From Myxococcota bacterium (GTDB lineage: Bacteria > Myxococcota_C > UBA6777), in the NCBI GenBank assembly GCA_023150835.1, contig JAKLKB010000043.1:1-64000 (forward strand): 64,000 nt of DNA, given 5' to 3'. Shown in pieces: positions 2,547 to 40,774 of the stretch. The first letter of the stretch is position 1. Each line of letters begins with the position of its first letter. The position numbers were made by a program, and so were the translations under genes. The notes below the pieces were generated by a model, which did not search any database, was not told the DNA's origin, and saw nothing but the letters and a program-made list of their open reading frames with translations.

Positions 2547-3488
2547 TTAGGGCTTGATGTCGACACAGACGGAGGGAGGAGGCGGGGGGCAACCGATGGC
2601 GGTGCAGGTGGCGTAATGTTCGCAGCGTTGGCCGCTTTTGCAATCGGCATCGGCTTCACAGCGGCGGGGGTCAGGTTCGACGGGCTTAGCGATACAGTAG
2701 GAGGGACCGCAGTTTTCAGCATCGCAGGGCAGGCTGTAGCAGATCTCGCCTTGAGCGCAGTCGCCGTCTTGAGCGCAAGTCTTGGGAGCGGGCGGATTGG
2801 GAACACAAGCCGAGGGGGGCGGCGGCGGACAGTTGAGTCCTGCGCAAGTCGCGTAATGTTCGCAGCGTTCGCCTTGTGCGCAATCCGCATCGCTGGTGCA
2901 GACCTTGGGTGCGGGGGGTTTGACGACGCAGCGACCTGCGGGTTGGGGCATACAAGGGAAAACTTGTGTGGTGCTATCAGAACTTGTTCCTTGCGCGGGT
3001 GCGCTACCTTCTTTTGCGCCTTGGGTGGGAGTTCCGCCGTCTTGAGTGCCCGGCATGGGATCCATCTCGCAACGCTCGTTTTGTGCGCAATCGCTGTCTT
3101 GGTAGCAAGTGACGGGCGGTGGTTCGACTTGGACAGGTGCGCAACGGCCTTGGATGCGGCGTGTTCCCGTGACGACGCCTGTGTACAAGCAGCGCTCTCC
3201 GCGTCTGCAATCGCTGTCTTTGCTACACACGCTTGGCTGAGGTGGGCGGGGCGGCGGTACGGGCTTGCTTTCGCAATAACCTTCGGCCACTCGGGTACGG
3301 ATCACACAGCCTGCCCCGTTGCACACGGCGGGTTCAGAAGGAGCAAGACGACAGACCTCTGTTCGTTTGCAATCATCATCACTGATGCACTTGATCGGAT
3401 TCACTTTTTCTTCGGGCTGTACCCCGCACCCTGCCAACCCCAAGAAACCCACGGCCATCCAGCCAACAACCCAACGATTCGACAACAT
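2547..3488 (-). CDS. Cys-rich repeat lipoprotein
   Basis: Lipobox GLAGC; six C-x2-D-x-DC-x4-C modules separated by Pro-rich linkers; AAGGA RBS. Confidence 0.85.
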   Translation of the reverse strand: MLSNRWVVGWMAVGFLGLAGCGVQPEEKVNPIKCISDDDCKRTEVCRLAPSEPAVCNGAGCVIRTRVAEGYCESKPVPPPRPPQPSVCSKDSDCRRGERCLYTGVVTGTRRIQGRCAPVQVEPPPVTCYQDSDCAQNERCEMDPMPGTQDGGTPTQGAKEGSAPAQGTSSDSTTQVFPCMPQPAGRCVVKPPAPKVCTSDADCAQGERCEHYATCAGLNCPPPPPSACVPNPPAPKTCAQDGDCAQGEICYSLPCDAENCGPSYCIAKPVEPDPRRCEADADCKSGQRCEHYATCTAIGCPPPPPSVCVDIKP

Positions 3489-3711
3489 ATCCTTTTCTCC
3501 TTGCTTGTGAGCCGACCTCGGCTCGTTTTTTCTTTCGAGAGAGCCTTAGGGCAAAAGCAAGGCCAAGTGCCGCGATCCACAAAAAACTCTTTCCTCCCAA
3601 ATCGTTGCTCGAAAGATCACACGATCTTTTTGCGCCTCCCCCCCTCCAAAAACTCTCACTCGCCTCAGTTTCTTGAGAGGAGAATTTGAGGGTGTATCTT
3701 TTTACATACAA

Positions 3712-5388
3712 TTAGATCGAGATCTTCATCTGCCCACGTCCAGCGCGTCCTGCGATCCAATGGACGGTGATCTCGCCTGTTCCATAAAGCCACCATTCGG
3801 CGAGATCGCGTTGTCCGCGAGCGGGGAGGCTCGCATAGAGCTGATGGCGTGCTTCATTGACGCGACTTTGTCCCCATCCATCGAGATGATGAAGGCTCTG
3901 TTCGAGCGGTGAGCGCAACGAACGTGCAGACTCGGGCATCTGCAAACGGACGCTGACGCCCGGGCTTGCGCCGATATCTTCGCCGCGTTGGAGCGCGGAA
4001 GTAGGCAGAAAGCCGCGATTTTCAAGGATCACTTGGAGGTGCTTGAGTTCGCCTTCGGAGTGGAGACGGGTTTCGAGATGGATCTGAGGGAGAGCTTTTC
4101 GCAAACGCTCGGCCATCCGATATCCGCGATCGCACTCGCGTTGGAGTAAGGCTTCGGGAGGATTGCGGATCGTGCGCATGTAGTCGATCCCGCCGATCTC
4201 GACGGGGCCAAGTTGAGGGTGGTCAAAAGGGTCCCAAGGACGGACGGCTTGGGGATCTTGGCTAAAGTGTTCGATCACGGGGCGCAATTTCTCGGGTTCA
4301 GGTTGGCGGAAAAAAGCAGCTGGTTGGGCGAGATCGATGCCTGCTTCTTTGAAGGGATCCCAAAATTCGACGGTGTATCCCGGGACACCAAAGATCACGG
4401 TCATCGTGTCGGACCACACCCCTGTTGTGGGCCGTTTGGGATCGTACATAAAGTCTGGATACACGCGAATCACCCGATAATCGGTGCCTTGGGTGGCATC
4501 TTTGGCGAGTTCTTCCATCAAGCGGATATCGTCTTCTTTGAGCGGAGAGTCTTGGCGGTAGGGTTGGGTCAGGATGCAGCCTGTATAGGTGTGAAAGGTC
4601 AAACCTCCGCAGATCGAGGGAAACCGAGCAAAAGTATCAACGACTGCGCGGCTTTCTTGCTCGCTCAGGGCGTAAGAGCCTGCGTCCATGCCAAACATCG
4701 ATGTCGGCATCCAATGGCCCGGGAAATTCCGATTGAGATCGATCCCGTGACGCAGCGGGGCAGCGCTCCAACAAACTCCATCCCAGTTAAGAAAGTGTCC
4801 CTCACTACAGAAGAAAAAGGCATCTTCGGGATCATCATCCAGCGTGCGATGACGCATCCACATCGGCAGCGTCGGATCGATCACAAAAGGCCCAGCAGGG
4901 TGCTTCCAACGCATCCAACGCACGACGCCATCTTTGTCGAGGTCGCTAGGTTCGAGTCCAACGCGGCTTTCGCCTTCTTTGGGAGGGCGCAAAGAAGAGC
5001 GCAAGTAGGGTGCGCCTTCGTGCAAGGCTTGGTATCCATCAGGGCTGATGCAAGGCATCACCAAGATCCGTTGATGCGCAAGCCATCGCGCCAGCGTTTC
5101 GTCGCCATCTCGGAGCCGTTCGATCCACCGAGACACCGTATACAAAGCCGCGCTAATGCCCGTCCATTCGGAGGCATGGGTTCCAGCGTCCAACCAAAGC
5201 GACGGCCCTTCGTCCGTCTGTGCTTGTTGTCCACCGATCTGCAAAAGCCAGATCGCTCGTTCTTCTCGGGTACGCCCGACTTCTTCAAGGCGAACCCACG
5301 CGGGGAATTCTTGCGCGAGTTGTCGGCACCATGCTTCGACCGCAGGATAATCAAGATATCGTTCAGCGCGATAAGGACTCCAAGACAC
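3712..5388 (-). CDS. M14 family zinc carboxypeptidase
   Basis: HASE zinc motif, ISPDG, DLNRNF, FHTY. Confidence 0.9.
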   Translation of the reverse strand: MSWSPYRAERYLDYPAVEAWCRQLAQEFPAWVRLEEVGRTREERAIWLLQIGGQQAQTDEGPSLWLDAGTHASEWTGISAALYTVSRWIERLRDGDETLARWLAHQRILVMPCISPDGYQALHEGAPYLRSSLRPPKEGESRVGLEPSDLDKDGVVRWMRWKHPAGPFVIDPTLPMWMRHRTLDDDPEDAFFFCSEGHFLNWDGVCWSAAPLRHGIDLNRNFPGHWMPTSMFGMDAGSYALSEQESRAVVDTFARFPSICGGLTFHTYTGCILTQPYRQDSPLKEDDIRLMEELAKDATQGTDYRVIRVYPDFMYDPKRPTTGVWSDTMTVIFGVPGYTVEFWDPFKEAGIDLAQPAAFFRQPEPEKLRPVIEHFSQDPQAVRPWDPFDHPQLGPVEIGGIDYMRTIRNPPEALLQRECDRGYRMAERLRKALPQIHLETRLHSEGELKHLQVILENRGFLPTSALQRGEDIGASPGVSVRLQMPESARSLRSPLEQSLHHLDGWGQSRVNEARHQLYASLPARGQRDLAEWWLYGTGEITVHWIAGRAGRGQMKISI

Positions 5389-5440
5389 GGCAGATCTCTC
5401 CTTTTCTTATTTCTCTCGGATGTATGACCCTACTCACAGA

Positions 5441-6850
5441 TCAGTCTGCTCCTCGCAAAGACGGCGCAGGTACGCCCTCAAAAGCAGGAACATCCGCAAG
5501 GATCTCAGAAAACATCTCTTGCAAGATCCGCTGAACCAGCGTGGGGTCCACGATCTCGCTACAGATCCCCGCGCTGATCGTCATTTGTTGATCATAACCG
5601 CTGATCGCGGGGGCAAAATGGGGAGCGTAGATCACACTTGCCGTCAGAAAAGCGTTGCGTACCGTAGGACCGCCCAGATCGAGTGCCGCAGGTTCGATCT
5701 GGCCCATATTGGTCATGGTCGGCGGAAGCAAAGCGTCCGCCAGTCGGAAGGTATAGCGAAATACCATGCGGCTCAGTGCGTACGGCAAATAACGCAAGAG
5801 AGGAACCATCAAAAGGATATCACCCGCCCCGATATAAGACTGTTTTTGTTCTTCGACTTGCTTGTGGATCACCGCGAGAGTTCGGGAAAAATCACTTGTG
5901 ATATCCTCGTGAGAAGGCAGCTTTGCGCCAAAGAAGTTGGAGAGGTTGCACAACGCCTCGGCTTGACGGCTTGGGAGATAACGGCGAAGATCCACCGTCG
6001 CCATCACACGCAACGGAGTTCGCGGATCAGTAGGAGCCAAGACGCGATACCAAGCCCGTAGATAGGCCGTCATCAACATATCATTCATGGTCGCATCGTG
6101 CATCCGCGCATAACGCTGAAGCACAGCCACTTCTTGCGGGCTGAAGTGGCGCAAGATGTAAGTGCGTTCGGTGTTGGGTAAACGCGCCCGAAAAGGCAGC
6201 CGCAGGTTGCGTGGGGGCCAAAAGCGTTGTGACAGATCGCGCCAAGCACGCCGAAGGCGAGGGAAAAAGTCGCGCCATCCGAATCGTTCAAGGATCTGAT
6301 CGACCTCGCGGCGACCGTGAAGATTCACAGGCAAGACAAAAGCAGGATCATCCGCCAGTTTTTTATAAGCATGCGCCAACAAGGAGGCGTATTGTTTGAG
6401 CGCACCGCCGTCTGCGTTGAGGTGATGGACTTTCAGGCAAAGAGTGTCGCCCTGATCATGTCGGAAGATCCGCGCTTGCACGATCGGATCGACGCAAGGG
6501 TCGGTGGGACGACAAAGATAGCGATCGAGATCGCCGTCGCGATCCTTGGTTTCCACAAGATCGCAAAGCTCCAACGTATCGAGATCCTCACGCCGTTCCC
6601 AGTATGGTCGCCATACACTCGCCACAAAACGGCATCCCAGCACAGGTTCCGCATCCATCGTCAAACGGATCGCACGCCGCATCCGCAACAGATCCAACGA
6701 CTCCTCCACATCCACCACACAATGGACTTGAAGATCGCCGAGAAATTCGTACATCAAAAAAACGACTTTATCGAAAGTGACCGAGGGTAGGCGCTTTGGA
6801 ATAGCCGTTGCGCTCTCTGAGGCAGAGGAAGAAAACAAAGGTCGAGTCAT
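5441..6850 (-). CDS. Stand-alone condensation-domain / acyltransferase protein
   Basis: HHLNADG (HHxxxDG) motif, TMND, VDLRRYL, TNMG. Start set at ATG 6850 because the longer ORF to 7135 runs through repeat A. Confidence 0.85.
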   Translation of the reverse strand: MTRPLFSSSASESATAIPKRLPSVTFDKVVFLMYEFLGDLQVHCVVDVEESLDLLRMRRAIRLTMDAEPVLGCRFVASVWRPYWERREDLDTLELCDLVETKDRDGDLDRYLCRPTDPCVDPIVQARIFRHDQGDTLCLKVHHLNADGGALKQYASLLAHAYKKLADDPAFVLPVNLHGRREVDQILERFGWRDFFPRLRRAWRDLSQRFWPPRNLRLPFRARLPNTERTYILRHFSPQEVAVLQRYARMHDATMNDMLMTAYLRAWYRVLAPTDPRTPLRVMATVDLRRYLPSRQAEALCNLSNFFGAKLPSHEDITSDFSRTLAVIHKQVEEQKQSYIGAGDILLMVPLLRYLPYALSRMVFRYTFRLADALLPPTMTNMGQIEPAALDLGGPTVRNAFLTASVIYAPHFAPAISGYDQQMTISAGICSEIVDPTLVQRILQEMFSEILADVPAFEGVPAPSLRGAD

Positions 6851-6959
6851 CACAAACCCCACAACGAAACGCACAAACAAGCAAGCGCCCGCAGCATAGC
6901 GCACGCCTCTACAGGCGACAAGGGCAAGACACAGAAACATCGCAAAGAAACGCTCCCGA

Positions 6960-7085
6960 CAAAACCCCCGTGTTCGCGCCCTTCCACGCGGCGCAGGCGT
7001 CTGATTGAAAAACCTGCGTTCACCCCGCCGATACGGGGTCAAGGGAGCCGCGCTAAGGCAGTGGGGTGTGGGGTGACACCCCACA
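6960..7085 (-). repeat. Family A repeat, copy 2
   Basis: GTGGGGTGTCACCCCAC hairpin, CCCTTGACCCCG, TTTTTCAA, GCGAACACGGGGGTTTTG. Confidence 0.85.
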
Positions 7086-7145
7086 AAAACAAACCCACCC
7101 ACAAAAGTCTCATCGATATGATAAAAACGTCGCAAAGAAACGCGA

Positions 7146-7174
7146 TTGACACCCCTGATGCGCCTTGGTAGGCT
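7146..7174 (+). promoter_or_regulatory. Sigma70-type promoter upstream of the OPT transporter
   Basis: TTGACA-17 bp-TAGGCT, about 125 bp upstream of ATG 7300. Confidence 0.55.
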
Positions 7175-7299
7175 ACGCGCCTCGCTTTGCAGCGACTCTT
7201 TCTACGCGGCGTGTACCGCGAACAAGGCCCGTCTACCCGATGGGATCTCTTGCGTTGCCCCCTGCTTCACCCTTTCTTCAACCTTACGGAGTCAAGTGA

Positions 7300-9201
7300 A
7301 TGGCGTTGAAACATCTAACCGACGAACAGATCCGTGATTGGACGGTCGAACAAAAAGACCGCTGGTGGCTAGAAAATGTCTATCGTGGGGATATGCCCCA
7401 ATTGACGCTGCGATCGGCCTTATCGGGCATGTTGATCGGTGGAGCGTTGTCCCTCACCAACCTCTACGTCGGGATGAAAACAGGGTGGACTTTGGGCGTG
7501 GGGATCACGTCGGTGATTATCGCATTTGCGATGTTCAAGGTCTTGGCTTCGGTCGGTATGGCCGACGAGTTTACGGTGCTAGAAAACAACTGTATGCAGT
7601 CGATCGCGACGGCTGCGGGCTATATGACTTCGCCCCTGATCGCCAGTCTTGCGGCTTATATGATCATCACCAACCGCGTGATCCCGATGGGAACGACGAT
7701 GCTGTGGATGATCTCGCTCGCTCTGCTGGGTGTACTCTTTGCGTTTCCGCTCAAGCGGCGCTTTATCAACGATGAGCAACACCCTTTCCCTGAAGGCCGT
7801 GCTGCGGGCGTTGTGATGGACGCTTTGCATACCAGCGACGCCAAAGAAGGCATCTTTAAGGCCAAGATCCTCGTCTATGGTGGCGGTCTTGCCGCGCTGC
7901 TTGAACTGCTCAAACAAGACCATCTACTCGACAAGATCAAACTGGGGTTTCTAGCGATCCCACACAGCCTTGAAGCCGGGCTTTACCGCTTGATGGGATG
8001 GACACCCAAGATCGGCGGAGTTCCGCTGCAACAGCTCACCATCACAATTGAACCCGATCACGTCATGGTCGCAGCAGGCGGACTGATGGGCATCCGCACA
8101 GGTGTATCGCTCCTGCTTGGTGCGATCTTTAACTATTTCGTCCTTGCCCCTTGGATGATCAACCACGGGGATATCCTCGGAAACGTCAACGCCAGCGGCG
8201 CAGCGGTCTTTGGCTTTCGCCCGATCACGACGTGGGCTTTGTGGTGTGGTGTCGCGATGATGACCACCGCCAGTTTGTTCGCTTTCCTTAGCAAGCCCGG
8301 GATGTTGCTGAATTCCTTTGCGAGCCTTTTTCGCAAAAAAGACGATAGCAAAGATATCCTCGGACACATCGAACTCCCGATGTCCGTCTTTCTCTTTGGT
8401 ATCCCCTTGGTCGGAAGCGTGGTCGTGTTGCTGGCGTGGTACTTTTTCCACGTGCCGATCTGGCTGGGTGCGCTGGCGATCCCGATGGTCTTTGTCTTTA
8501 CGATCATCGCGGCCCATTCGACCGCACTGACCGCGATCACACCCACAGGCGCGCTCGGAAAGCTTACCCAACTCACCTACGCTGCACTCACTCCGAGCAT
8601 CACCACCAACGTCATGACCGCAAGCATCACAGGCGAAGTCGCCGGCAATGCCTCGAACTTGTTGATGGATATCAAACCGGGCTATATGCTCGGCGGAAAG
8701 CCCCGTCATCAGGCGCTCGGACACGTCTTGGGCATCATCGCTGGTGCGATCGTCTGTGTGCCGATCTTTTACATCGCCTTTTTGCGCAACAATCCTTCGG
8801 GCCTGATCTCTTCGGAGTATCCGATGCCGGGCGCGACCATCTGGAAAGCCGTCGCCGAGATCTTGACTCGCGGCATCTCCGAACTCCCCCTGACGGCTGT
8901 CTATGCCGCTTTGATCGGTGCCATCCTCGGGATCGCCCTCGAAGCCATCAAAGTCCTCAGCAAAGGCCGCTTCCCGATCTCTGCGGTGGGCCTTGGACTT
9001 GCGTTTGTCATCCCTTTTAACACCTGCTTTGCCATGTTTCTTGGCTCTTTCCTCTTTTGGCTCGCCGAAAAATCCTTTCAACGCGAAGACTCCTTTGCAC
9101 ACCGCGTCTTTGTGCAAAACCTCGAACCTGTCGCGGCTGGCGTGATCGCTGGTGGTGCCTTGATGGGCATCTTGATCGCCGTCCTCACCGCTGCTTTCTA
9201 A
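7300..9201 (+). CDS. OPT family oligopeptide transporter
   Basis: QLTLR, NLYVGMKTG, LENNCMQSIATAAG, PFPEG, DIKPGYMLGGKPR; many TM helices. Confidence 0.95.
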   Translation: MALKHLTDEQIRDWTVEQKDRWWLENVYRGDMPQLTLRSALSGMLIGGALSLTNLYVGMKTGWTLGVGITSVIIAFAMFKVLASVGMADEFTVLENNCMQSIATAAGYMTSPLIASLAAYMIITNRVIPMGTTMLWMISLALLGVLFAFPLKRRFINDEQHPFPEGRAAGVVMDALHTSDAKEGIFKAKILVYGGGLAALLELLKQDHLLDKIKLGFLAIPHSLEAGLYRLMGWTPKIGGVPLQQLTITIEPDHVMVAAGGLMGIRTGVSLLLGAIFNYFVLAPWMINHGDILGNVNASGAAVFGFRPITTWALWCGVAMMTTASLFAFLSKPGMLLNSFASLFRKKDDSKDILGHIELPMSVFLFGIPLVGSVVVLLAWYFFHVPIWLGALAIPMVFVFTIIAAHSTALTAITPTGALGKLTQLTYAALTPSITTNVMTASITGEVAGNASNLLMDIKPGYMLGGKPRHQALGHVLGIIAGAIVCVPIFYIAFLRNNPSGLISSEYPMPGATIWKAVAEILTRGISELPLTAVYAALIGAILGIALEAIKVLSKGRFPISAVGLGLAFVIPFNTCFAMFLGSFLFWLAEKSFQREDSFAHRVFVQNLEPVAAGVIAGGALMGILIAVLTAAF

Positions 9202-29818: not shown

Positions 29819-32800
29819 GTGGTGATCTTCCCAGAAATCAAAGCAGGGATGCGCATCGGTCGCGACCCCGACGAGCAGAAGAAACAGTATGTCCTTGAAA
29901 AACCTTTGGGGGACGGTGGACAAGCCCAAGTCTGGCGAGCCAAAAAGTACGGAGATCGGGGGTTTTATACCGAAGTCGCTCTCAAGCTGCTCGATCCTTC
30001 CCCTGCACCCGGCTACACCCCCGAAAAGATGGAAAGCCTCTTCTTCTCCGAGGCGATGGTCACCAGCCGCCTCCAAAACTCTGAATTCTTCGTCAAAGTC
30101 CACGATGCTTTCCGCGATCCCACCCGCAATCTCTTTGGCATCGAGATGGAGATCTTGTACGGCCTCGATTTCCAAAAACTTGCCGAATTTTACGCCACCT
30201 CTGGCCTTCCTCTCGTCCCCTTGCATCATCCGCCCTCTCTGCGCAAAAAGCCCTCTCACAAAGCTGCCTTGCCTTGGCAGGTCGTCTTCTCTCTTTTTTC
30301 TCAAGTCTTTCAAGGTCTTGCCTATGCGCACACCGCAAAAGACTCCGATGGCAAGCCCCTCAATCTGATCCACCGCGATATCAAGCCACCCAACCTCATG
30401 CTCTGTCACAATGGCCGCATCAAGATCATCGATCTCGGTATCGCCCGATGGGATCAGCGCGATGAAGCGATCGCTACCCATGACTCCTCTAGCAAAGGCA
30501 CCGTCGGCTATCTCGCTCCCGAGATCATCCTCGCCAACGACGGCAAATCCACCCCTTCTTCCCAAGCCTCTCCTCAAAGCGACTTATTCTCCGCAGGCGT
30601 CGTTCTTTACGAACTGCTCACGTCCTTTCCTGCCCTCACCAAAGGGTATCTCTGGGAATATCTGATGGATATCGGCCAACTCGACACCCATCCGCCCGTC
30701 CATCCCTGCGAGATCGTTCCCTCTCTTCCTCGTGACGCTGGCCTGCTCGTTCTCCAACTCCTCAAAAAGAATCCTCGCGAACGCCCCGTCAGCGCCCACG
30801 AAACCTTCTCCATGATCAATCACATCCTCCGCCACCACAAAGCCTACATGAGCAGCGATGACCTTCAACATTGGTTTGCTCAAGTCCGTGGCGAACACAC
30901 CACGCCTCCTCCTCGCACCGCCCATTACGACGCCTCCACCCTACAAGCCGCCGCTCGACTCGCACAACAACACGATGCCCCCATCCCTCCCCTACACCCT
31001 CTTGCTTCCTCTTCTTCCCTTTCCTCCGAACACCCTCTTGCTTCCTCTTCTTCCCTTTCCTCCGAACACTCTCTTGCTTCCTCTTCTTCTCTTTCTACCG
31101 AACAGGCTCGCATCGAGACCGCTCATCTCGATGATCACTCCCTTTCTTTTCTGCGCAAAGATCTCTCCGCACCTTCTCCTTCTTCTGAGCGCCTCCCTTC
31201 CCCCCGTCCTTCCGACTCTTCCCTTGCCCTCTCTCCTCTCTCCGTCGATGATTCCTTGCTCGATCCCGCTTACTTCGATGAGCCTTCTCGCTCTCTCCTT
31301 CGCAAAAATCCCCCTGCTGCGGCTTCTTCCACTTCTTCCCGTCCTTCCACTTCGCCTTCTTCAGCCACTTCCTCCGCTCCATCCGCACAGCCCACCTCGC
31401 CTACCTCGCCCACAAGCGTTGCTTCCGCTACATCTTCCGCCACTTCGACGCTTTCCGCTCCTTCTTCTCCCACTCCTTCCTCCCAAGACGCCGCCTATTA
31501 CGCGCCCACTGTCTTGCGCATCCCTTCTCCTTTGCTTGATGCTCCCACTGACCTCCTTGTCCAAGAGCGCCATCTCCTCGCCACCGACGCCTCTTTTGAC
31601 CACGACGCTCCTTTGCTTTCCCATCCCGATCTCAAGCCTTATACGCCCAAAACTCCCAAGTCTTCCCCCGATCCTCGACTTAAGACTTTTTCTCAACCGC
31701 TCCCCGACGAACTTTCCGCTGCTTCCAGCCAAGACGCCCTCGATGCTTTGTCTATGCGCCCCCCCACCGGCATCCTCGTCGGTGTCGAGGGCCGCGAGTT
31801 GCTCCTTCAAGCCATCGAAGAAGCCAACCTCCGTATGCCCACACAACAGGACATCCGCCTCCCTTCTTCTCACCTACCTGCTTTTCCCGATAATTCCGCC
31901 CTTCCCAACGCCCTCTCCTCTTCCCAATCCGCAAATGCCCTTCCCAACGCCCTCTCCTCTTCCCAATCCGCAAATGCCCGTCCCAACGCCATCTCCTCTT
32001 CCGTCGCCGAACCGACCGCACACACCAAGACTTCCCACGAGAACACCTCCGTTGGCTCTTCTTCCCATCCTCTCGAAGCGACCGCCTCTTCCGATGCTTC
32101 CACTCCCACTCTTCCTACCTTTGTTTGGGTCGGCGGGCTTCTTCTCGCTTTCCTCGGCGTTGCCTTGGGCTGGATGGTCGTTCGGCAGCTTCTCCACAAA
32201 TCGACGCTCCTCCCCGATGATGCTGGCCTTCACGCTTCTGTTGCTCCCCATCCGCTCCGCGCTTCCCCCAACGCTCCCTCCCTACGCACCGAACCTTCTC
32301 AACGCACCGAGCCTTCCCTACGCACCGAGCCTTCCCTACGCACCGAACCTTCCCTACAGGCCGATCTGCGTACCGAACCACCTGCGCTCCGTCGCCGCGC
32401 CGCTGCTCGCCGCCCCTTTCTCCGGCGCAAACGCCCACAACATCGGCCTGTTCACGCTCTTTCCGCTCCATCCCTGCTTTCCCTGCCTCCCCGCACTCCG
32501 CCTACTCCGCCCACCACGCCCGAACCCCGCATCGCTATCCTTACCGTCCCTCAAACACCGCCCAAGCTTGTCTTGCGTGTTTTCGGCAACACTTGTTCAC
32601 TCTTTAACCAAGAACAAGGTTTCGGCCAGCGCTCCATTTACCGACTTACTCTCCACGAAGGCACGCATCACTTCCGCTGTATCAATCGAAAAAAAAACAT
32701 CCAGTGGCGTTTTCAGGCCCATCTCCGACTCGGCAAAACTTTCGAGATTCAAAAAGATCTCTCCACCGGCAAAATCTTTTTACTTTCCAACCCTTGGTCT

Positions 32801-33761: not shown

Positions 33762-35594
33762 GTGATGACTTTTCCCTTTTCTGGGAAGCCTCGGGTCACA
33801 AGAATATCTCTTGCCGTTTTTGTTTTTGGGTTCTTACTTTTGCACCAAACGGCCTGTTTACCTCCTCCGCTCAGTCTCGATTGCGATTTCTGTTTCGACG
33901 GAACCTGCGGAGTCAACACGGGCTTTGTATGCAAAGACGGCTATTGTGTCCCTGAGAGCGACCCCAATCCCGCTCGCTGCAAAACTGAACTCCCTGACGG
34001 CGGTTTGGAAAAGACCGAACCCCTCGACGAGACCTCTCCCGAAGAGGCCACCAACCCCGAAGAGGCCGCAAATCCCGAAGAACCCACCTCTCCCGAACCT
34101 GAGCCTTACATCGAAACTGAACCCGAACGCCCTGAAACCCCCGACACTCAACACGTCCTCATCACCCTGCTTGAAGGCGATGATGATCGAGAGCAACCTC
34201 TCTCCTACCCCACCGGCACTTCCGCGCCTCCAAACGCCAAAGAAGCCAAATTCCGATTCCGCACTTCATGGCGTGTCTTCGGTGCAAACCTGCGCCGCAT
34301 CGACTCTTGGAAACTTCAATCCAAAGACAAATCTCAGACTTTTACTCTCAATGCTACCGACATAAAGGATACCGACATGAAACTCACTCTCCCTGCTGCC
34401 CTCACTGCGGGCTTTTTTACTCTCCTCGGACTCATTGGTACCACACCCACCGTTCAAGCCGAAGTTTACGTTCTCCAAGGCAAAGACGGCAAAGACGGCA
34501 AAGACGGCGCACAAGGCCCCAAAGGCGACACCGGCACGCAAGGCCCCGCTGGGAAAGACGGCCTCGGCTTCGATCCGACCACCGTCACCTTCGTCAACGC
34601 CCTCAAATCCGCTGTCTCCATCCAAGGCAGCACCCTCACCTTCAAAGCCGACACCATCACCGTCGACACAAAAACCTTCACCGTCAAAGGCGATACCAAA
34701 CAAACCACCCTCACACTCGACGACTCCGCCCAAACCATCACCCTCAAAAACGCCAACCTTCACATCCAAAGCGGTTCTGGCTCCACCGACGGCACCGTCA
34801 ACGGCTTTGGTAACCTGATCCTCGGCTACAACGAAGACGGTGGCACCGCAAAAACACGTACCGGTTCTCACAATCTCATCCTTGGTAGGGAACACAGTTA
34901 CACCGAACATTCGTCCATCCTTTCTGGCACCAAGCACACCGTCAACGCCCCCTACGCTTCCGCCATCGGTGGCTCTTCCAATACCATCACCAGCAATGCC
35001 CCCCACGCCGTTGCCATCGCTGGAGCGAACAATACCTTCGCTTCCTCTCGCACTGCTCTTTACGCAGCCTCTCTTGGCGGGGAAGATAATCAAATAAATT
35101 CCAACTACGCCGCCGCTGTCGCTGGACAAAATAACAGTAATACAGGGACGCATGCCGCCGCTGTCGCTGGACAAAATAACAGCATCACAGCGACCCATGC
35201 CGCCACTCTCGCCGGCGGTGGAACGGACGCGAACAACGACAAAAACACCGTTTCTCAGTCTCACGCGGCTGCTGTCGCTGGGCAAAAGAATACTGTCAAC
35301 GGTAAGAATGCCGCCGCTGTCGCTGGACAAAATAACACCGTTGACGGAACCCATGCCGCCGCTGTCGCTGGACAAAATAACAGTATCATAGGAACCCATG
35401 CCGCCACTCTCGCTGGCGGTGGAACGGACGCGAACAACCACAAAAACACCGTTTCTCAATCTCACTCGGCCATTCTAGGGGGGCAAAAAAACAACATCAA
35501 CGTGAGTTCAAAGGCTGCCGTCGCTGTCTGCGGTTCTTTTGGCGTCAACTCCACTCTTTCCACCTCTTCCTGCTGTGTTGGTACACCTCCATAA
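33762..35594 (+). CDS. Fibre-like surface lipoprotein 1 (Cys-rich N-terminus, collagen-like Gly-X-Y, beta-helical repeat tip)
   Basis: AGGAGG RBS; lipobox QTAC; GKDGKDGKDGAQGPKGDTGTQGPAGKDG; GNLILGYNE...GSHNLILG; 14-aa AAAVAGQNN repeats. Confidence 0.85.
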   Translation: MMTFPFSGKPRVTRISLAVFVFGFLLLHQTACLPPPLSLDCDFCFDGTCGVNTGFVCKDGYCVPESDPNPARCKTELPDGGLEKTEPLDETSPEEATNPEEAANPEEPTSPEPEPYIETEPERPETPDTQHVLITLLEGDDDREQPLSYPTGTSAPPNAKEAKFRFRTSWRVFGANLRRIDSWKLQSKDKSQTFTLNATDIKDTDMKLTLPAALTAGFFTLLGLIGTTPTVQAEVYVLQGKDGKDGKDGAQGPKGDTGTQGPAGKDGLGFDPTTVTFVNALKSAVSIQGSTLTFKADTITVDTKTFTVKGDTKQTTLTLDDSAQTITLKNANLHIQSGSGSTDGTVNGFGNLILGYNEDGGTAKTRTGSHNLILGREHSYTEHSSILSGTKHTVNAPYASAIGGSSNTITSNAPHAVAIAGANNTFASSRTALYAASLGGEDNQINSNYAAAVAGQNNSNTGTHAAAVAGQNNSITATHAATLAGGGTDANNDKNTVSQSHAAAVAGQKNTVNGKNAAAVAGQNNTVDGTHAAAVAGQNNSIIGTHAATLAGGGTDANNHKNTVSQSHSAILGGQKNNINVSSKAAVAVCGSFGVNSTLSTSSCCVGTPP

Positions 35595-35716
35595 CCCCTC
35601 CTCTCAAATAAAACACCGACCGCTCTTGACACCTGCCGTTGCCTCTGCCATCTCTCTCCACAGCGTCTGCTTTTTCTACCGCCCTTCACTTTTTTTCTTG
35701 ACATCACGGAGGCCCC

Positions 35717-37342
35717 ATGCCACCGCCCTTTTTCACGCACGCTCCTCCTTCCAAACCTGCAAACCACCGATACTTCGCCCTTTTCATCTCGACTCTCTTT
35801 GCACTCTCTCTTCTTCCCCTTCACTCCGCTTGTTTGCCTCCTGCTCCTCTCGACTGCAATCCTTGTCAAACCGACGGAACCTGCGGAGTGAACACGGGCT
35901 TTGTATGCAAAGACGGCTATTGTGTCTCTGAGAGCGACCCCAACCCTGCTCGCTGCAAAACCGAGCGCCCTGACGGCGGTTTGGAAAAGACCGAACCCCT
36001 TGACGAAACCTCTCCCGAAGAGACCACCAACCCCGAAGAGGCCACCAACCCCGAAGAGTCCGTCCACCCCGAGGATGGCGCTCCTCTTGATAACGAGCCT
36101 CTGCGCGAACAAGAACCTGAACTTGTGATCAAGGAAACCGACAAGCCTTACATTGCGCGAGTCAACGGCAATGGCACCCAACTCGATGTCAACGCCAAAG
36201 ATTCGCCTTTCAAACCCGACAAACCTCCCACCGCGCCTTCACCAAATCGCATCAAAGATGCCCTTGTCATCGAAGGCGCTCTGCTCGACCAGATCACACG
36301 ATGGACACTCACTCCCGCAGATCCCCAATCTTCCCATCCCACCCTTACATGGACAAACAACGAAATCACAAAGGGCCAAAACATGCTCACTCTTTCTTTT
36401 TCCAAAACAAAAACCATTCTGGCTGCTGGCTTGTTTCTTCTCACCGGCCTCTATGCACAAGGCAACGTTCAAGCACAAATCTTTGTTCTTCAAGGCGAAA
36501 AAGGCGAATCAGGGGCCAAAGGCGACAAAGGCGAGAAGGGCGACCCCGGACTCACCTCCTCCGAACAAACTCAACTCCAAGCCTTGTTGCCCAAGCTCAA
36601 AGCCAGTGGCAACAAACTGATCCTCACCGCCGACGAGATCAGCTTTGAATCCGCCGCTGGCAACGAAGCTGCCAAGCTCGTCATCGACAGCGCTAAAAAA
36701 GAACTCTCTTTTTCGAGCGGAACCACCATTTTTTCTTTCAACAGCACACAACTCACCGCCACCGCAAACCAAGTCAACGTCAACACCCCAAACTTCGAGA
36801 TCAAGGGAGCCAACGCGACCTCTCTCAAACTCGATGACTCTGCTCGTTCTATCTCCTTACGTGTCACACAGAAAAATGCGACCACTCAGGCCACCTTTTC
36901 TCTTGAAGGCGGCGATGCGAACGCCAATCCTGTTCCCCTGACCAAATACCCTCTCGCCACCTTTGATCGCACCAACGTCCAAGTCCAAAGTGGCGCTGGA
37001 AAAACGGACGCAGCCGTCAACGGACTTGGAAATTTGATTGTCGGGTACAATGAAAAGCGCTCTCTAGGAAACGTGGTCAAAACGGGTTCTCATAACGCCA
37101 TCATCGGCATGGAACATCACTATTCAAGTTACGGCGGCTTTGTTCAAGGCAAAACGAATTCCATCACCGATACGTTCGCGGGGGTCTTTGGGGGGTCAGG
37201 GAACACGGCGAGTTCCTCAGGAGCGGGGGTCTTTGGGGGGTCAGGGAACACGGCTTCGGGGGTTTTTCCGGCGGTTCTCGGTGGTGTTGGAGAGCTTGTT
37301 CAATGTGGGGGTGGCTCCACCGTTGCTGTTTGCCAGAAATAG
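35717..37342 (+). CDS. Fibre-like surface lipoprotein 2, paralog of 33762-35594
   Basis: GGAGG RBS; lipobox HSAC; near-identical N-terminal DNA; GEKGESGAKGDKGEKGDPG; GNLIVGYNE...GSHNAIIG; AGVFGGSGNTAS repeats. Confidence 0.85.
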   Translation: MPPPFFTHAPPSKPANHRYFALFISTLFALSLLPLHSACLPPAPLDCNPCQTDGTCGVNTGFVCKDGYCVSESDPNPARCKTERPDGGLEKTEPLDETSPEETTNPEEATNPEESVHPEDGAPLDNEPLREQEPELVIKETDKPYIARVNGNGTQLDVNAKDSPFKPDKPPTAPSPNRIKDALVIEGALLDQITRWTLTPADPQSSHPTLTWTNNEITKGQNMLTLSFSKTKTILAAGLFLLTGLYAQGNVQAQIFVLQGEKGESGAKGDKGEKGDPGLTSSEQTQLQALLPKLKASGNKLILTADEISFESAAGNEAAKLVIDSAKKELSFSSGTTIFSFNSTQLTATANQVNVNTPNFEIKGANATSLKLDDSARSISLRVTQKNATTQATFSLEGGDANANPVPLTKYPLATFDRTNVQVQSGAGKTDAAVNGLGNLIVGYNEKRSLGNVVKTGSHNAIIGMEHHYSSYGGFVQGKTNSITDTFAGVFGGSGNTASSSGAGVFGGSGNTASGVFPAVLGGVGELVQCGGGSTVAVCQK

Positions 37343-37538: not shown

Positions 37539-37837
37539 CAAAGGGTATCTCTGGGAATATCTGATGGATATCGGCCAACTCGACACCCATCCTCCCGTCC
37601 ATCCCTGCGAGATCGTTCCCTCTCTTCCTCGTGACGCTGGCCTGCTCGTTCTCCAACTCCTCAAAAAGAATCCTCGCGAACGCCCCGTCAGCGCTCACGA
37701 AACCTTCTCCATGATCAGCCACATCCTCCGATCCATCCGCACAGTCCACCTCGCCCGTTTCAACCACGAACGTTTCGTCCTCTACACCTTCCGCCCTTTC
37801 CGCTCCTGCTCCTCCCACGCCTTCCTCCCAAGACGCC
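37539..37837 (+). pseudogene. Remnant copy of the 29819 kinase gene with an internal deletion
   Basis: 37539-37730 matches 30640-30831 (4 mismatches seen in 192 bp), then continues as a more diverged match to 31377-31492. Confidence 0.85.
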
Positions 37838-37845
37838 CGCCCCTG

Positions 37846-37966
37846 CGAAAGCCGTGTTCGCGGCACTCCAAGCGGCGCGGTCGTTGGTTTGAAAAACGCC
37901 TGCTCTTTCCGCCGATACGGGGTCAAGGGGCGCAAGTCCCTTGCGGGGCGTGGGGCAGCGCCCCAC
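37846..37966 (-). repeat. Family A repeat, copy 8
   Basis: GTGGGGCGCTGCCCCAC, CAAGGG..CCCTTGACCCCG, TTTTTCAAACC, GCGAACACGGC. Confidence 0.9.
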
Positions 37967-37981
37967 ACAACCGTCCGACAA

Positions 37982-38203
37982 CTATGCCTGTTTGTTTTGG
38001 AGGTTTTTGAGGGGGGGTGTTTCTTGTTGGACGACGACATGAGCACTCCGAGGCTCACGTGCAGGAAAAGACACCAATTTCTTGCCTGAAACACGTTGTC
38101 TTCGCAGAATGTCTTGAAACATAGCGTCTGCATCGTGGCCGAATTGGCTGGCGTATTCTTCTCTTAATGCGCGTGTCTCAGCGACAATAGGATCTTGCCA
38201 CAT
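37982..38203 (-). CDS. Small partner (putative antitoxin) of the PIN-domain protein
   Basis: MWQDPIVAETRALREEYASQF is the small protein type commonly found right after this class of PIN gene; it starts 3 bp after the PIN stop. Confidence 0.75.
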   Translation of the reverse strand: MWQDPIVAETRALREEYASQFGHDADAMFQDILRRQRVSGKKLVSFPAREPRSAHVVVQQETPPLKNLQNKQA

Positions 38204-38206
38204 CGC

Positions 38207-38545
38207 TTAACTCTCCGTTAATTCGTCTGGTGTGCAGATAATAGGGGGTTCATAACCCAAAGCCCGACAGGCATTTTCAATTTTGGGTCGGACGTGGGCA
38301 TTGGCAATGTGCGTGCAATTCCAAGTCAGCAGGTATTCGATGCCATGAACCGCTGCAATAGCCACATGAAATGCGTCCATTTCCGCTTTTTCTGGTAAGG
38401 CTCCACAACGAATTAGAGATTTTCCGAGAATTCGAACCTGCTCAGTTGCTTGCAATTCCATGATACCTTCCATCGCATCAAGGCGGCGCTTTGCTGCGTC
38501 GGGATGACCTAAGCTGGCTTCGGCAATAACAAACTCAGAGATAAC
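38207..38545 (-). pseudogene. vapC: PIN/VapC toxin gene, 3' fragment (codons 46-157)
   Basis: VISEFVIAEAS...DAFHVAIAAVHGIEYLLTWNCTHIAN...PIICTPDEL; no native start, begins at the attC crossover GTT. Confidence 0.85.
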
Positions 38546-38672
38546 GCTTGAACTGAGCGGCACCAAAGGCGAAACGACATCTCCAGCAAAGGATCAGGCA
38601 TCCAACCTGCCCGGAAATCGGTAGTACTCAAGCAACTTCGCCTTTGGTGTCCGCTCCAGTGATTTGTTCGCC
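38539..38672 (-). mobile_element. attC: Integron attC recombination site (134 bp)
   Basis: R'' GGCGAAC, 5-bp spacer, L'' ACTGGAGC ... L' GCTCAGT, 6-bp spacer, R' GTTATCT. 22-bp stem (38552-38573 with 38637-38660) has two extrahelical bases, T38650 and C38657 on the + strand. Confidence 0.9.
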
Positions 38673-39596
38673 ATTTATATGTATCCCTGTAAATAAACCC
38701 TCATCTAATCGTTTTTGAATAACATCAATGTAATTTTTTTCAATTTCAATGCCAATAGCCTTATAGCCGAGTTCAAGAGCAGCTACTAAAGTTGTTCCAG
38801 TGCCAGCAAATGGATCAAGCACTACATGATTATTATCGTTAGGTAAAAACAGATCAATAAGTTTTCTTATAAGAGAAATCGGTTTTATCGTGCAATGCTC
38901 ATCAAATTTCTCATCTCGCCCTTTCGCAAAGCCTTCCAATATATTAGATTGAAAGGAACCATCAGAAAGTATAGCTTTAAACGGACCCAATCCAGTTTCT
39001 TGTATCGTATTGATGTAGTTATCTATTAGAGGCTTTTGGACAACAACAATCGCTTCCCACTCATTTCTCAGACAGGTATGCCATCCATTCCATTCGTGAG
39101 CGTCTGAATCTCCGAGTTTAGCTAGTTTTTTCTCTATATTTAGGCCCTTTGGGATCCCAGCATGGCGTCTATAAACAAGAACGTCTCTCGCATAGAAGCC
39201 AGCATCCTCAAGGGCAATTTGAATATGAGCTAATGTTCTTGTACTACTAAAAACAGCAACGATTGCTCCATTTTTACACACGCGCAGAAGTTCATTTGAC
39301 CAATCTTTCGCCCACTCGATATACTGAACGACATTCTCCCTATTACGTTGATACCACCTTTCATTCCGAACACCACCAGCCAACCCACTTCCATAGGGAA
39401 TGTTTTTTACTAAAGTCGAACTATCTTGAATACGTTCTATTCGTCTCTGTATCTCGTCGTGATCCCAATTTCTGCCGATAAATTCGTAATTATAGGGAGG
39501 ATCTGTGATAACACAGGAAATACTATTCTCTTGGAGTAAACCTAAAAGCTCTCGACAATCACCATGCATAAGTTGCAATTGTTTTTTTGTACTCAT
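38628..39596 (-). CDS. Site-specific N6-adenine/N4-cytosine DNA methyltransferase, beta class
   Basis: TDPPY near the N-terminus; HCTIKP and LDPFAGTGTT near the C-terminus; ATGA overlap with the upstream gene. Confidence 0.93.
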   Translation of the reverse strand: MSTKKQLQLMHGDCRELLGLLQENSISCVITDPPYNYEFIGRNWDHDEIQRRIERIQDSSTLVKNIPYGSGLAGGVRNERWYQRNRENVVQYIEWAKDWSNELLRVCKNGAIVAVFSSTRTLAHIQIALEDAGFYARDVLVYRRHAGIPKGLNIEKKLAKLGDSDAHEWNGWHTCLRNEWEAIVVVQKPLIDNYINTIQETGLGPFKAILSDGSFQSNILEGFAKGRDEKFDEHCTIKPISLIRKLIDLFLPNDNNHVVLDPFAGTGTTLVAALELGYKAIGIEIEKNYIDVIQKRLDEGLFTGIHINGEQITGADTKGEVA

Positions 39597-40210
39597 CGTG
39601 TTATATAAAACTCCTTCGTATCTGCAAAGTTGGTAAGTGTTGAAAGCAAGTCAAATCCGCTTTTTTCATAAATATAATTAAAACTTTCCTCTCCTGTTCG
39701 TACATCCCACCCACCTGTTTTGCAGGCAGTAAGAGCAGCAGGAAGATTGTCCTCTCGCACGATCAGTAAAACAGGGCTAAATCCTCTTTCAGACAGTAAT
39801 GTTCCGTATTGTTTAAATTTCTTTAATGTTCCCGAATCTCCTGAACCGATTCTATATTTGGTATCAATAGCATCAGACCCGACAATACAATCACAAGGTT
39901 CATCCCTGTTTATTTGCAAAGCAGGTTGATAATCAGGGCAGTTAGCTTGAAAAACCTCCGTAACAAGCCGTTGCCAACACATTCCAAGTTCTCTTCCCCA
40001 ATATTGACGATTTTCTCTCTTTAGATCGGGAGTAATCCCAAAAATATCCATAAGAGGATCGCGGTCATCATTATCGTCTCCATAGGATTTATCACTGAAA
40101 GAGTTTTGGTAATGCTCCAAGATTCCTCTCAATAAACTTTCTATTTGTTCTGGTGGCATAAATTTTACTCCATTCTGTACAATAAATTCGCGGTTGAAAA
40201 GGATGCTCAA
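39593..40210 (-). CDS. Putative type II restriction endonuclease (PD-(D/E)xK-like)
   Basis: EPCD...AIDTKYR motif; translationally coupled to the methyltransferase; AT-rich. Specificity unknown. Confidence 0.75.
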   Translation of the reverse strand: MSILFNREFIVQNGVKFMPPEQIESLLRGILEHYQNSFSDKSYGDDNDDRDPLMDIFGITPDLKRENRQYWGRELGMCWQRLVTEVFQANCPDYQPALQINRDEPCDCIVGSDAIDTKYRIGSGDSGTLKKFKQYGTLLSERGFSPVLLIVREDNLPAALTACKTGGWDVRTGEESFNYIYEKSGFDLLSTLTNFADTKEFYITR

Positions 40211-40273
40211 TCAACCACAAAAAGTCAATCACTTTTCCGAGAATGCCGCATTTTTCTTGGCAACATGGCGAAT

Positions 40274-40408
40274 GAGATCGTACTTGAAACGTTGCGTATC
40301 CCACCACTCAACTGTAGCATTTTGGTTCGCCATCGCTGGCAGGTCGTTGTTTGGGCGTGCGGTCAAATAGCTGATCACCGAGGTTTCGATATAAACTTTA
40401 GGCTTCAA
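40274..40408 (-). pseudogene. vapC: PIN/VapC toxin gene, 5' fragment (codons 1-45)
   Basis: TTG start after an AGGTG RBS; MKPKVYIETSVISYLTARPNNDLPAMANQNATVEWWDTQRFKYDL. It now reads on into the cassette and stops at 40229 (59 aa, below the ORF-track cutoff). Confidence 0.85.
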
Positions 40409-40604
40409 TCAATCACCTGCTATTTTATGGGTTTGCGTGTCGGGGAGTTACATCCCAAGTTCCCTCGGTCCAAAAACTGTCATGGCAACGTTCATCACAA
40501 AGAAAATTCGTTGTCAAGCTTATTTTTTATGAGTTGTTTTGTGGCGTCTGGGAATGTTCGCCTTGAGACAGTCGGGCTTGTATCGACAAGATTTGCACAG
40601 CCGA

Positions 40605-40728
40605 AAAAGAAAAGCCGAGTTCGCGCCGTATCAAGCGGCAGGGCTGTTGGTTTGAAAAAGTCAGATCACCCCGCCGATATGGGGTCAAGGGGCGCAAGTC
40701 CCTTGCGGGGCGTGGGGCCGCGCCCCCC
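40605..40728 (-). repeat. Family A repeat, copy 9
   Basis: Shares GGGGTCAAGGGGCGCAAGTCCCTTGCGGGGCGTGGGGC exactly with copy 8. Confidence 0.9.
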
Positions 40729-40774
40729 AAAAACCAAAACGCCCCACAAAACCGCCCGACAGCGCAAGCCCTCT

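Follow-up and report, generated by a model that had tools for sequence, protein, structure and literature searches.

Here, we describe a restriction-modification (R-M) system located inside a toxin gene in a stretch of 64,000 nucleotides, hereafter the window, which comprises positions 1 to 64,000 of contig JAKLKB010000043.1 (C199) in the assembly GCA_023150835.1 of a Myxococcota bacterium. A PIN/VapC-like gene on the reverse strand of the window is split by a 1,728-bp block that carries genes for a restriction endonuclease-like protein and a DNA methyltransferase and ends in an attC site, and we consider it very probable that this block is an integron gene cassette which an integron integrase inserted into the gene, outside any cassette array. 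An off-array insertion of this kind had been proposed in an earlier note made from the letters of the window, and it is supported by the identity of the attC site, the integrases encoded in the same genome, the colinear uninterrupted homologues of the split gene and the recovery of the junctions in other studies.

According to the explanation that we propose, the 1,728-bp cassette would have been a circle whose attC, folded into its hairpin, was recombined by an integron integrase with a secondary site in double-stranded DNA. This site would have been codon 46 of a PIN/VapC-like gene in the chromosome. Exchange at x|TT would have let the cassette enter without duplication or deletion while cutting the toxin gene into pieces of 45 and 111 codons, and the outcome would be a lone cassette (SALIN), with an R-M system in the place of the toxin.

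The split gene and the attC site

The earlier note had described a vapC-like gene divided by an AT-rich unit encoding an endonuclease and a methyltransferase, and its coordinates were found to be as claimed (Table 1), with a G+C content of 39.9% in the block compared to 50.6% in about 3.3 kb of flanking sequence and 55.2% in the genome. The block is present as a single copy in the 7.56-Mb, 239-contig assembly and is oriented in the same way as the gene that it splits. Base 40273, an A, is the first position of the split codon 46, and without the insert (40272-38545) the gene consists of 157 codons with no target bases gained or lost. Colinearity of homologues across the DL/IISE junction, which had been set beforehand as a test, was observed in 12 of 12 full-length homologues (157-158 aa): both halves align with these end to end, with neither gap nor overlap at ...KYDL|(V)ISEF..., and the 3' part is 73-85% identical to them. 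A search with the 3' part returned 2,007 relatives at E <= 1e-3 (from 2,009 candidates), and most of the 120 matches listed are 157-158 aa long. The uninterrupted allele that had been expected in relatives is found in 71 of 80 related metagenome loci, where the halves directly adjoin each other (0 nt apart); seven of the other nine loci have no match to the 5' half (five of these start too near to show it) and two have truncated alignments. Since the halves are colinear in the 12 homologues and adjacent in the 71 loci, the insertion involved no target duplication and no deletion, as the earlier note had stated. As it now stands, the 5' frame reads into the cassette and terminates after 59 aa, and the frame of the 3' part is still open, where a TTG at 38566 inside attC could start a fragment of 119 aa.

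The full attC claimed for the end of the insert was likewise recovered, on the basis of its score with a model of the six sites outside the window and of covariation over seven sites. The hairpin at 38674-38539 has a DNA folding energy of -30.0 kcal/mol compared to -18.7 +/- 2.8 kcal/mol for shuffled sequences (z -4.1; 0 of 200 as good), and its stem has 22 pairs, two extra bases on the R''/L'' arm and the spacers AAATC and TCAAGC. The hairpin ends, 5' AACAAATC... and 3' ...TCAGGCGTT (the ...TCARGCGTT box), are common to two attC sites beside an integrase gene on contig C47. A covariance model made from the window site and these two C47 sites (model R1) scored the window site at 144.6 bits and found three further attC sites, on contigs C72, C48 and C121. 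With a second model (R2), made from the six attC sites outside the window (contigs C47, C121, C72 and C48), the window site reached 49.6 bits, at an E value of 1.2e-10 for the window and of 1.5e-8 for the genome, and the runner-up within the 64-kb window had 11 bits; genome-wide, with 150 of 1,221 first-look candidates scored, R2 recovered its six training sites and the window attC and nothing else. As MAFFT misplaced short or long attC sites, the models were first made from an alignment (A2) whose structure was set by hand, and later from alignments fitted with a model. In the seven sites together, 97.6% of the stem cells pair, compared to 23-40% with partners slid; the AAC/GTT core pairs are invariant in all of them, and six of the nine stem pairs covary, with changes on both sides, in an alignment that was fitted to the structure.

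The two ends of the block also match each other. Its first eight bases, TTCGCCAT, are complementary to its own R'', ATGGCGAA, at 8 of 8 positions, and with R'' written ATGGCGAA-C, joining the ends of the block into a circle at G|TT would regenerate an R' free of mismatches. The exact complementarity put forward in the earlier note thus holds for the bases of the insert and falls to 8 of 9 when the preceding base is included, as the inner core ATGGCGAAC is the complement of G+TTCGCCAT and the actual preceding base is A. The same complementarity between start and R'' occurs in four other cassettes of the genome, namely cassettes 1 and 2 of contig C47 (in cassette 2 the pair is TTGGGCAT / ATGCCCAA) and both cassettes of contig C121.

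With one attC and its coding sequences, the block has the composition of a lone cassette, and no other attC (models R1 and R2) and no match to the integron integrase family TIGR02249 were found on contig C199. The earlier statement that no integrase lies nearby is therefore correct for the window contig, and the genome has two on other contigs, which exceed the TIGR02249 cut-off of 265 with scores of 444.7 bits for C47 and 340.1 bits for C51; both are free of stops and have the HxxR...Y C-terminal motifs. The genome-wide search that had been suggested for intI and attC yielded these two integrases and the six attC sites on other contigs, and one or the other of the two presumably carried out the insertion.

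Table 1. Features of the locus in window coordinates and attC-like matches in related metagenome loci, the latter in coordinates of each locus.
Feature	Position	Strand	Remarks
Integron gene cassette (probable)	38545..40272	-	1,728 bp; starts TTCGCCAT, ends ...AAGCG; boundaries from colinear homologues
Cassette leader	40160..40272	-	113 nt, non-coding; GGAG 8 nt ahead of endonuclease ATG
Restriction endonuclease-like gene	39593..40159	-	188 aa, PD-(D/E)XK type
N6/N4 DNA methyltransferase gene	38628..39596	-	322 aa; start overlaps endonuclease stop by 4 nt (ATGA)
attC	38539..38674	-	136-nt hairpin; R'' ATGGCGAAC at 38674-38666
attC stem arms	5' 38660-38637, 3' 38573-38552	-	from the fold; two extra bases in the 5' arm
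attC 3' end	crossover between 38545 and 38544	-	spacer TCAAGC, R' = G|TTATCT
PIN/VapC-like gene, 5' part	40274..40408	-	codons 1-45, TTG start, ends ...WWDTQRFKYDL
PIN/VapC-like gene, 3' part	38207..38544	-	TT of codon 46 (38544-38543), codons 47-157, stop at 38207
Partner gene, presumed antitoxin	37982..38203	-	73 aa, intact; starts 4 nt past PIN gene stop
About 125-bp repeat copy	40611..40735		upstream of PIN gene, outside cassette; 572 blastn matches in genome
About 125-bp repeat copy	37848..37975		downstream of partner gene; 654 blastn matches in genome
attC-like R1 matches by PIN module	L139 760-829, L132 1347-1489, L125 521-586, L158 147-218, L150 450-515		

Junctions and rival explanations

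To assess the junctions outside the assembly, we used sequencing runs. Half or more of the sampled words of the stretch occur in 20 runs, which come from 8 studies and from activated sludge, wastewater, sludge or soil. For four runs, each of a different study, contigs were compared with the locus: all four have contigs across the right junction and three have contigs across the left, and these extend for 31 letters or more to either side. The six shorter of the bridging pieces agree with the window at every letter, and the one of 1,337 nt differs at four. Each of the three contigs across the left junction has the A at 40273. These data bear on the possibility that the locus is an assembly or binning artefact in which unrelated metagenome pieces were joined, an explanation that might draw on the division of the assembly into 239 contigs and on the breaks of the integron regions of this genome at contig ends. 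As the junctions are bridged in independent contigs from four other studies, without differing letters in the shorter pieces, and as the 20 runs hold so much of the stretch, the structure is not an assembly error, and we regard an artefact as barely conceivable. Further, the inserted form is the one seen by several studies in metagenomes from sludge, wastewater and soil, which indicates that it is stable and not a rare variant. No DNA match to the locus or the cassette was found in 40 other genomes or in 5 other genomes of the phylum sample, with the five family-member genomes having completeness of 64-94%; in the same-genus genome G001, the neighbouring 779-aa gene is present at 91% identity and the contig ends short of the locus.

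Several observations weigh against the integron interpretation or against the identity of its parts. The left junction reads A|TT and the right junction G|TT, where the G is supplied by the cassette, and by the accepted mechanism the base to the left of the crossover at the left junction derives from the target. This base is A, not the G of the 5'-GWT-3' consensus given for genomic secondary sites (attG) in a preprint (bioRxiv 10.1101/2022.09.11.507474). Four loci with the same flanking bases read TACGATCTC|GTT|ATTTC.GAG, and in the 71 intact relatives codon 46 starts with G in 17 and is an Ile codon in one only. The extra stem bases on the recombined strand would be C and T, compared to G and T in the aadA-type site of contig C121. 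Models R1 and R2 were built from sites of this genome itself, and the training alignment of R2 was fitted with R1, which had been trained with the window site. Behind the methyltransferase gene, R1, which is specific to the attC type of this genome, found no attC in 80 loci from many phyla with relatives of the endonuclease-like gene. The endonuclease-like protein of the window has no Pfam match of its own and no sequence match in PDB, its structural model has no Foldseek match at E <= 0.001, and Pfam PIN (PF01850) is above its cut-off in only one of four intact homologues of the split gene. Of the G|TT or GWT-type target that the earlier note had assumed, the right junction and the GTT of the closest relatives agree, and the left junction, which now reads A|TT, does not. 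We see about equal chances that the target allele was ATT (Ile), and thus a non-consensus A|TT site, and that it was a GTT which mutated after insertion; such a mutation would leave a weaker left core and promote fixation of the cassette.

The 80 loci with relatives of the R-M unit also lend themselves to an account in which the unit arrived by a non-integron route (its own mobility, another recombinase or illegitimate recombination) and the hairpin is a terminator or a chance palindrome. These loci span many phyla and have no attC of the R1 type, with only two weak R1 matches about 1.3 kb upstream on the opposite strand, the left junction does not have the consensus G, and type II systems are known to be mobile as whole units, as Furuta and Kobayashi are said to have reported in NAR in 2010. 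Against this stand the 49.6 bits of the hairpin with R2, where the rest of the 64 kb reaches at most 11 bits, the complementarity of R'' to the first eight bases of the insert, as in four bona fide cassettes of the genome, the G|TT of the right junction, and a search at the insert that found no target duplication, transposase or terminal inverted repeat. Taken together, we judge a non-integron arrival to be very improbable, and insertion as an integron cassette is retained; as R1 found no attC behind the methyltransferase gene in the relatives' loci, no donor array is known for this cassette.

The earlier note had further suggested that the locus could act as an RM-on/toxin-off switch, and this idea is without support, with no empty site and no circle in the contigs examined. 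Such a reversible switch would mean that the cassette still excises at a useful rate, restoring the 157-codon toxin gene and releasing the 1,728-bp circle, and that cells toggle between R-M and toxin-antitoxin. Loss of a type II R-M unit is usually penalised by post-segregational killing, and its loss here would be expected to be counter-selected. Both halves of the gene and the partner gene are open and undecayed, the attC and the two integrase genes are intact, and excision of genome-inserted cassettes at the insertion point has been shown in E. coli according to the same preprint (bioRxiv 10.1101/2022.09.11.507474), all of which would suit a switch. However, the left core is A|TT rather than G|TT, which should lower cleavage if judged by the GWT consensus, and the inserted form is what the assemblies of several studies contain. 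Over 37976-40610, the contigs of the four runs have no insert-skipping joint and no circle joint, with neither the rejoined gene nor the circle seen, although contigs drop rare variants and several bins are uncovered, and this is hence no evidence of absence. A reversible switch appears improbable to us, and we would give just as little credence to a working two-state device in which one of the integrases of the genome excises the cassette at low frequency, the toxin gene is restored, the R-M circle re-enters an array or another site and the A-for-G exchange in the left core sets the frequency.

Cargo, toxin module and host integrons

The methyltransferase assignment rests on PF01555 (N6_N4_Mtase, 106.7 bits with a cut-off of 26.7, E 2.3e-30) and on the PADLOC family MTase_II (E 4.6e-41). 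For the endonuclease-like protein, the evidence includes a weak match to PADLOC REase_II (E 0.0018) and the Pfam family RE_ApaLI, which was under its cut-off in three of the five proteins tested; among the 120 matches listed, 4 carry the NCBI name 'restriction endonuclease' and 11 a precomputed RE_ApaLI label. Its AlphaFold2 model has a predicted local distance difference test score (pLDDT) of 84.6, with PspGI, Card1 and Ecl18kI as best Foldseek matches (E 4e-3 to 1e-2), and D86, D99 and K101 are invariant across 30 homologues, forming a D...D-x-K motif. Enzymatic activity is presumed for both proteins. The pair is kept as a unit: in at least 12 of the 80 loci, Microcystis and Thiomargarita among them, one alignment runs across the two genes with nucleotide identities of 64-77%. 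The homology of the unit extends from 40159-40169 to 38687-38707 and ends just before R''. The last 14 codons and the stop of the methyltransferase gene lie within attC, which encodes the tail ...NGEQITGADTKGEVA, and two cassette genes of contig C47 end likewise.

A consensus promoter scan gave 4 sites where 3.9 were expected, none of them in the cassette leader or before the PIN gene. With the cassette in the same orientation as the split gene and no promoter of its own recognisable, transcription of its genes most likely starts at the toxin operon promoter.

Neither half of the split gene alone matches a Pfam or NCBIfam family, and a PDB sequence search with the PIN profile found nothing. 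The fold was assessed on an intact homologue (P0002) and not on the broken gene. At E <= 0.001, the AlphaFold model of P0002 (pLDDT 92) matches 17 PDB chains, most of which are VapC toxins or PIN-domain proteins, and its top 10 Foldseek chains include VapC20, VapBC15, VapBC2 and VapBC11 (E 6e-5 to 4e-4). The PIN/VapC identity proposed in the earlier note is in line with this VapC fold, and two relatives carry the NCBI name 'VapC family toxin'. Across 30 homologues, E8, E49, E54 and D102 are invariant, and as the split parts E8 from the other three, the toxin must be inactive; the intact protein is presumed to be toxic. A homologue of the small partner gene lies downstream of the PIN gene, at a distance of 2-16 nt, in 77 of the 80 related loci, which makes the two genes a conserved module; the 73-aa partner has no match to a Pfam, NCBIfam or PADLOC family. 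The module resembles VapBC-type modules in the VapC-like fold of the intact homologue and in its conserved two-gene layout with a small partner. It differs in that the toxin gene comes first and the partner second, in that the partner lies outside the known antitoxin families, and in Pfam PIN scores that are at or under the cut-off.

In five of the 80 metagenome loci, the PIN-plus-partner module adjoins an attC-like match of model R1 (E 2e-5 to 5e-3; Table 1), and in L139 and L132 the match directly follows the partner gene. From these sequences, the module itself is apparently in some cases an integron cassette. In the window, direct copies of a G+C-rich repeat of about 125 bp (80-86% alike) bracket the toxin module. 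These repeats were considered as attC sites and ruled out by their more than 570 copies in the genome and by the lack of any match to the models; they may be REP- or MITE-like elements. Additionally, a direct repeat of 192 nt with 98% identity occurs at 30640-30831 and 37539-37730, 6.9 kb apart, and just upstream of the locus, at 33762-37342, two paralogous secreted proteins with collagen-like GKD repeats are encoded.

Contig C47 contains a complete integron platform (2587-8609), in which a 322-aa integrase gene faces attI with the crossover GATATCG|TTCGGCA. Its cassette 1 holds several small open reading frames and an AAA ATPase, cassette 2 is an in-array R-M counterpart with an HNH protein, an Eco29kI-type restriction endonuclease and a C5 methyltransferase, and in both the final gene extends into attC. 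The second integrase (C51 1745-2668) lies inside an open frame of 598 codons whose N-terminal ~280 residues are unrelated to IntI, and which would be explained by a fusion or by an open frame that extends far upstream; on the attI side of the integrase, the contig ends after 1.7 kb. At the start of contig C72 (317-1123) there is a cassette with an AF2212-like antitoxin, a PIN toxin and an attC, and at the start of C48 (755-1456) a cassette with a MerC mercury-transport protein and an attC. The integron arrays of the genome appear to be broken over several contigs.

Contig C121 (9157-10847) has a stretch 92% identical to the attI region of C47 with no integrase gene adjoining. A cassette with the metallo-beta-lactamase gene blaIMP-1, 99.8% identical to those on clinical Pseudomonas and Acinetobacter plasmids, is located exactly at the G|TT point of this attI-like stretch and is followed by a cassette with a 113-aa membrane protein and an aadA-type attC, and then by the contig end. 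This would represent either a clinical carbapenemase cassette at the attI of an environmental sludge bacterium or a mis-binned contig, and it bears on the meeting of environmental integrons and clinical cassettes in sludge.

Relation to known systems and significance

Precise insertion of a single cassette outside attI and attC, with expression from a resident promoter, was reportedly described by Recchia and Hall in 1995 for the aadB cassette, which had entered the IncQ plasmid RSF1010 at a secondary site (pIE723), and the discussion of the preprint cited above mentions this insertion. That case involved a plasmid target and a resistance gene, whereas a chromosomal toxin gene and a defence system are involved here. 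Loot et al. describe how cassettes insert at genomic sites, are expressed from promoters nearby and are excised, as well as 3,400 lone cassettes (SALINs) in RefSeq (bioRxiv 10.1101/2022.09.11.507474, reportedly published later in Nat Microbiol). The present locus shares with SALINs and with attC x attG insertion the single one-attC cassette, the lack of an integrase or other attC nearby, the short genomic site, the x|TT exchange, the disruption of a gene and a placement where a host promoter can read the cassette. It differs from what is given there in the A in place of the consensus G at the left junction, in the two-gene R-M cargo, in the toxin gene as target, and in being a natural event in an uncultured sludge bacterium with its own integrases, which are not of class 1-3. 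Type II R-M systems as cassettes in sedentary chromosomal integrons have been described by Darracq et al. (bioRxiv 10.1101/2024.07.02.601686), and the likeness to these lies in a compact R-M pair packaged with attC, one of which also occurs in the C47 array of the same genome; the cassette of the window lies outside any array, alone and inside another gene.

Off-array lone cassettes and R-M cassettes have thus both been described already, and the locus is a clean natural example. For an integron cassette inside the toxin gene of a toxin-antitoxin module we found no paper, in a search which does not establish that none exists.

The locus represents a base-resolved natural case of a route of off-array cassette spread that has been shown in the laboratory, for which the cassette, the gene that it entered, numerous uninterrupted relatives of this gene and the integrases of the host are all available. 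The A|TT of the left core offers a small and testable point on how such cassettes become fixed. In wastewater bacteria, defence cargo, and not resistance genes alone, spreads off-array, and a toxin gene is a tolerated landing site.

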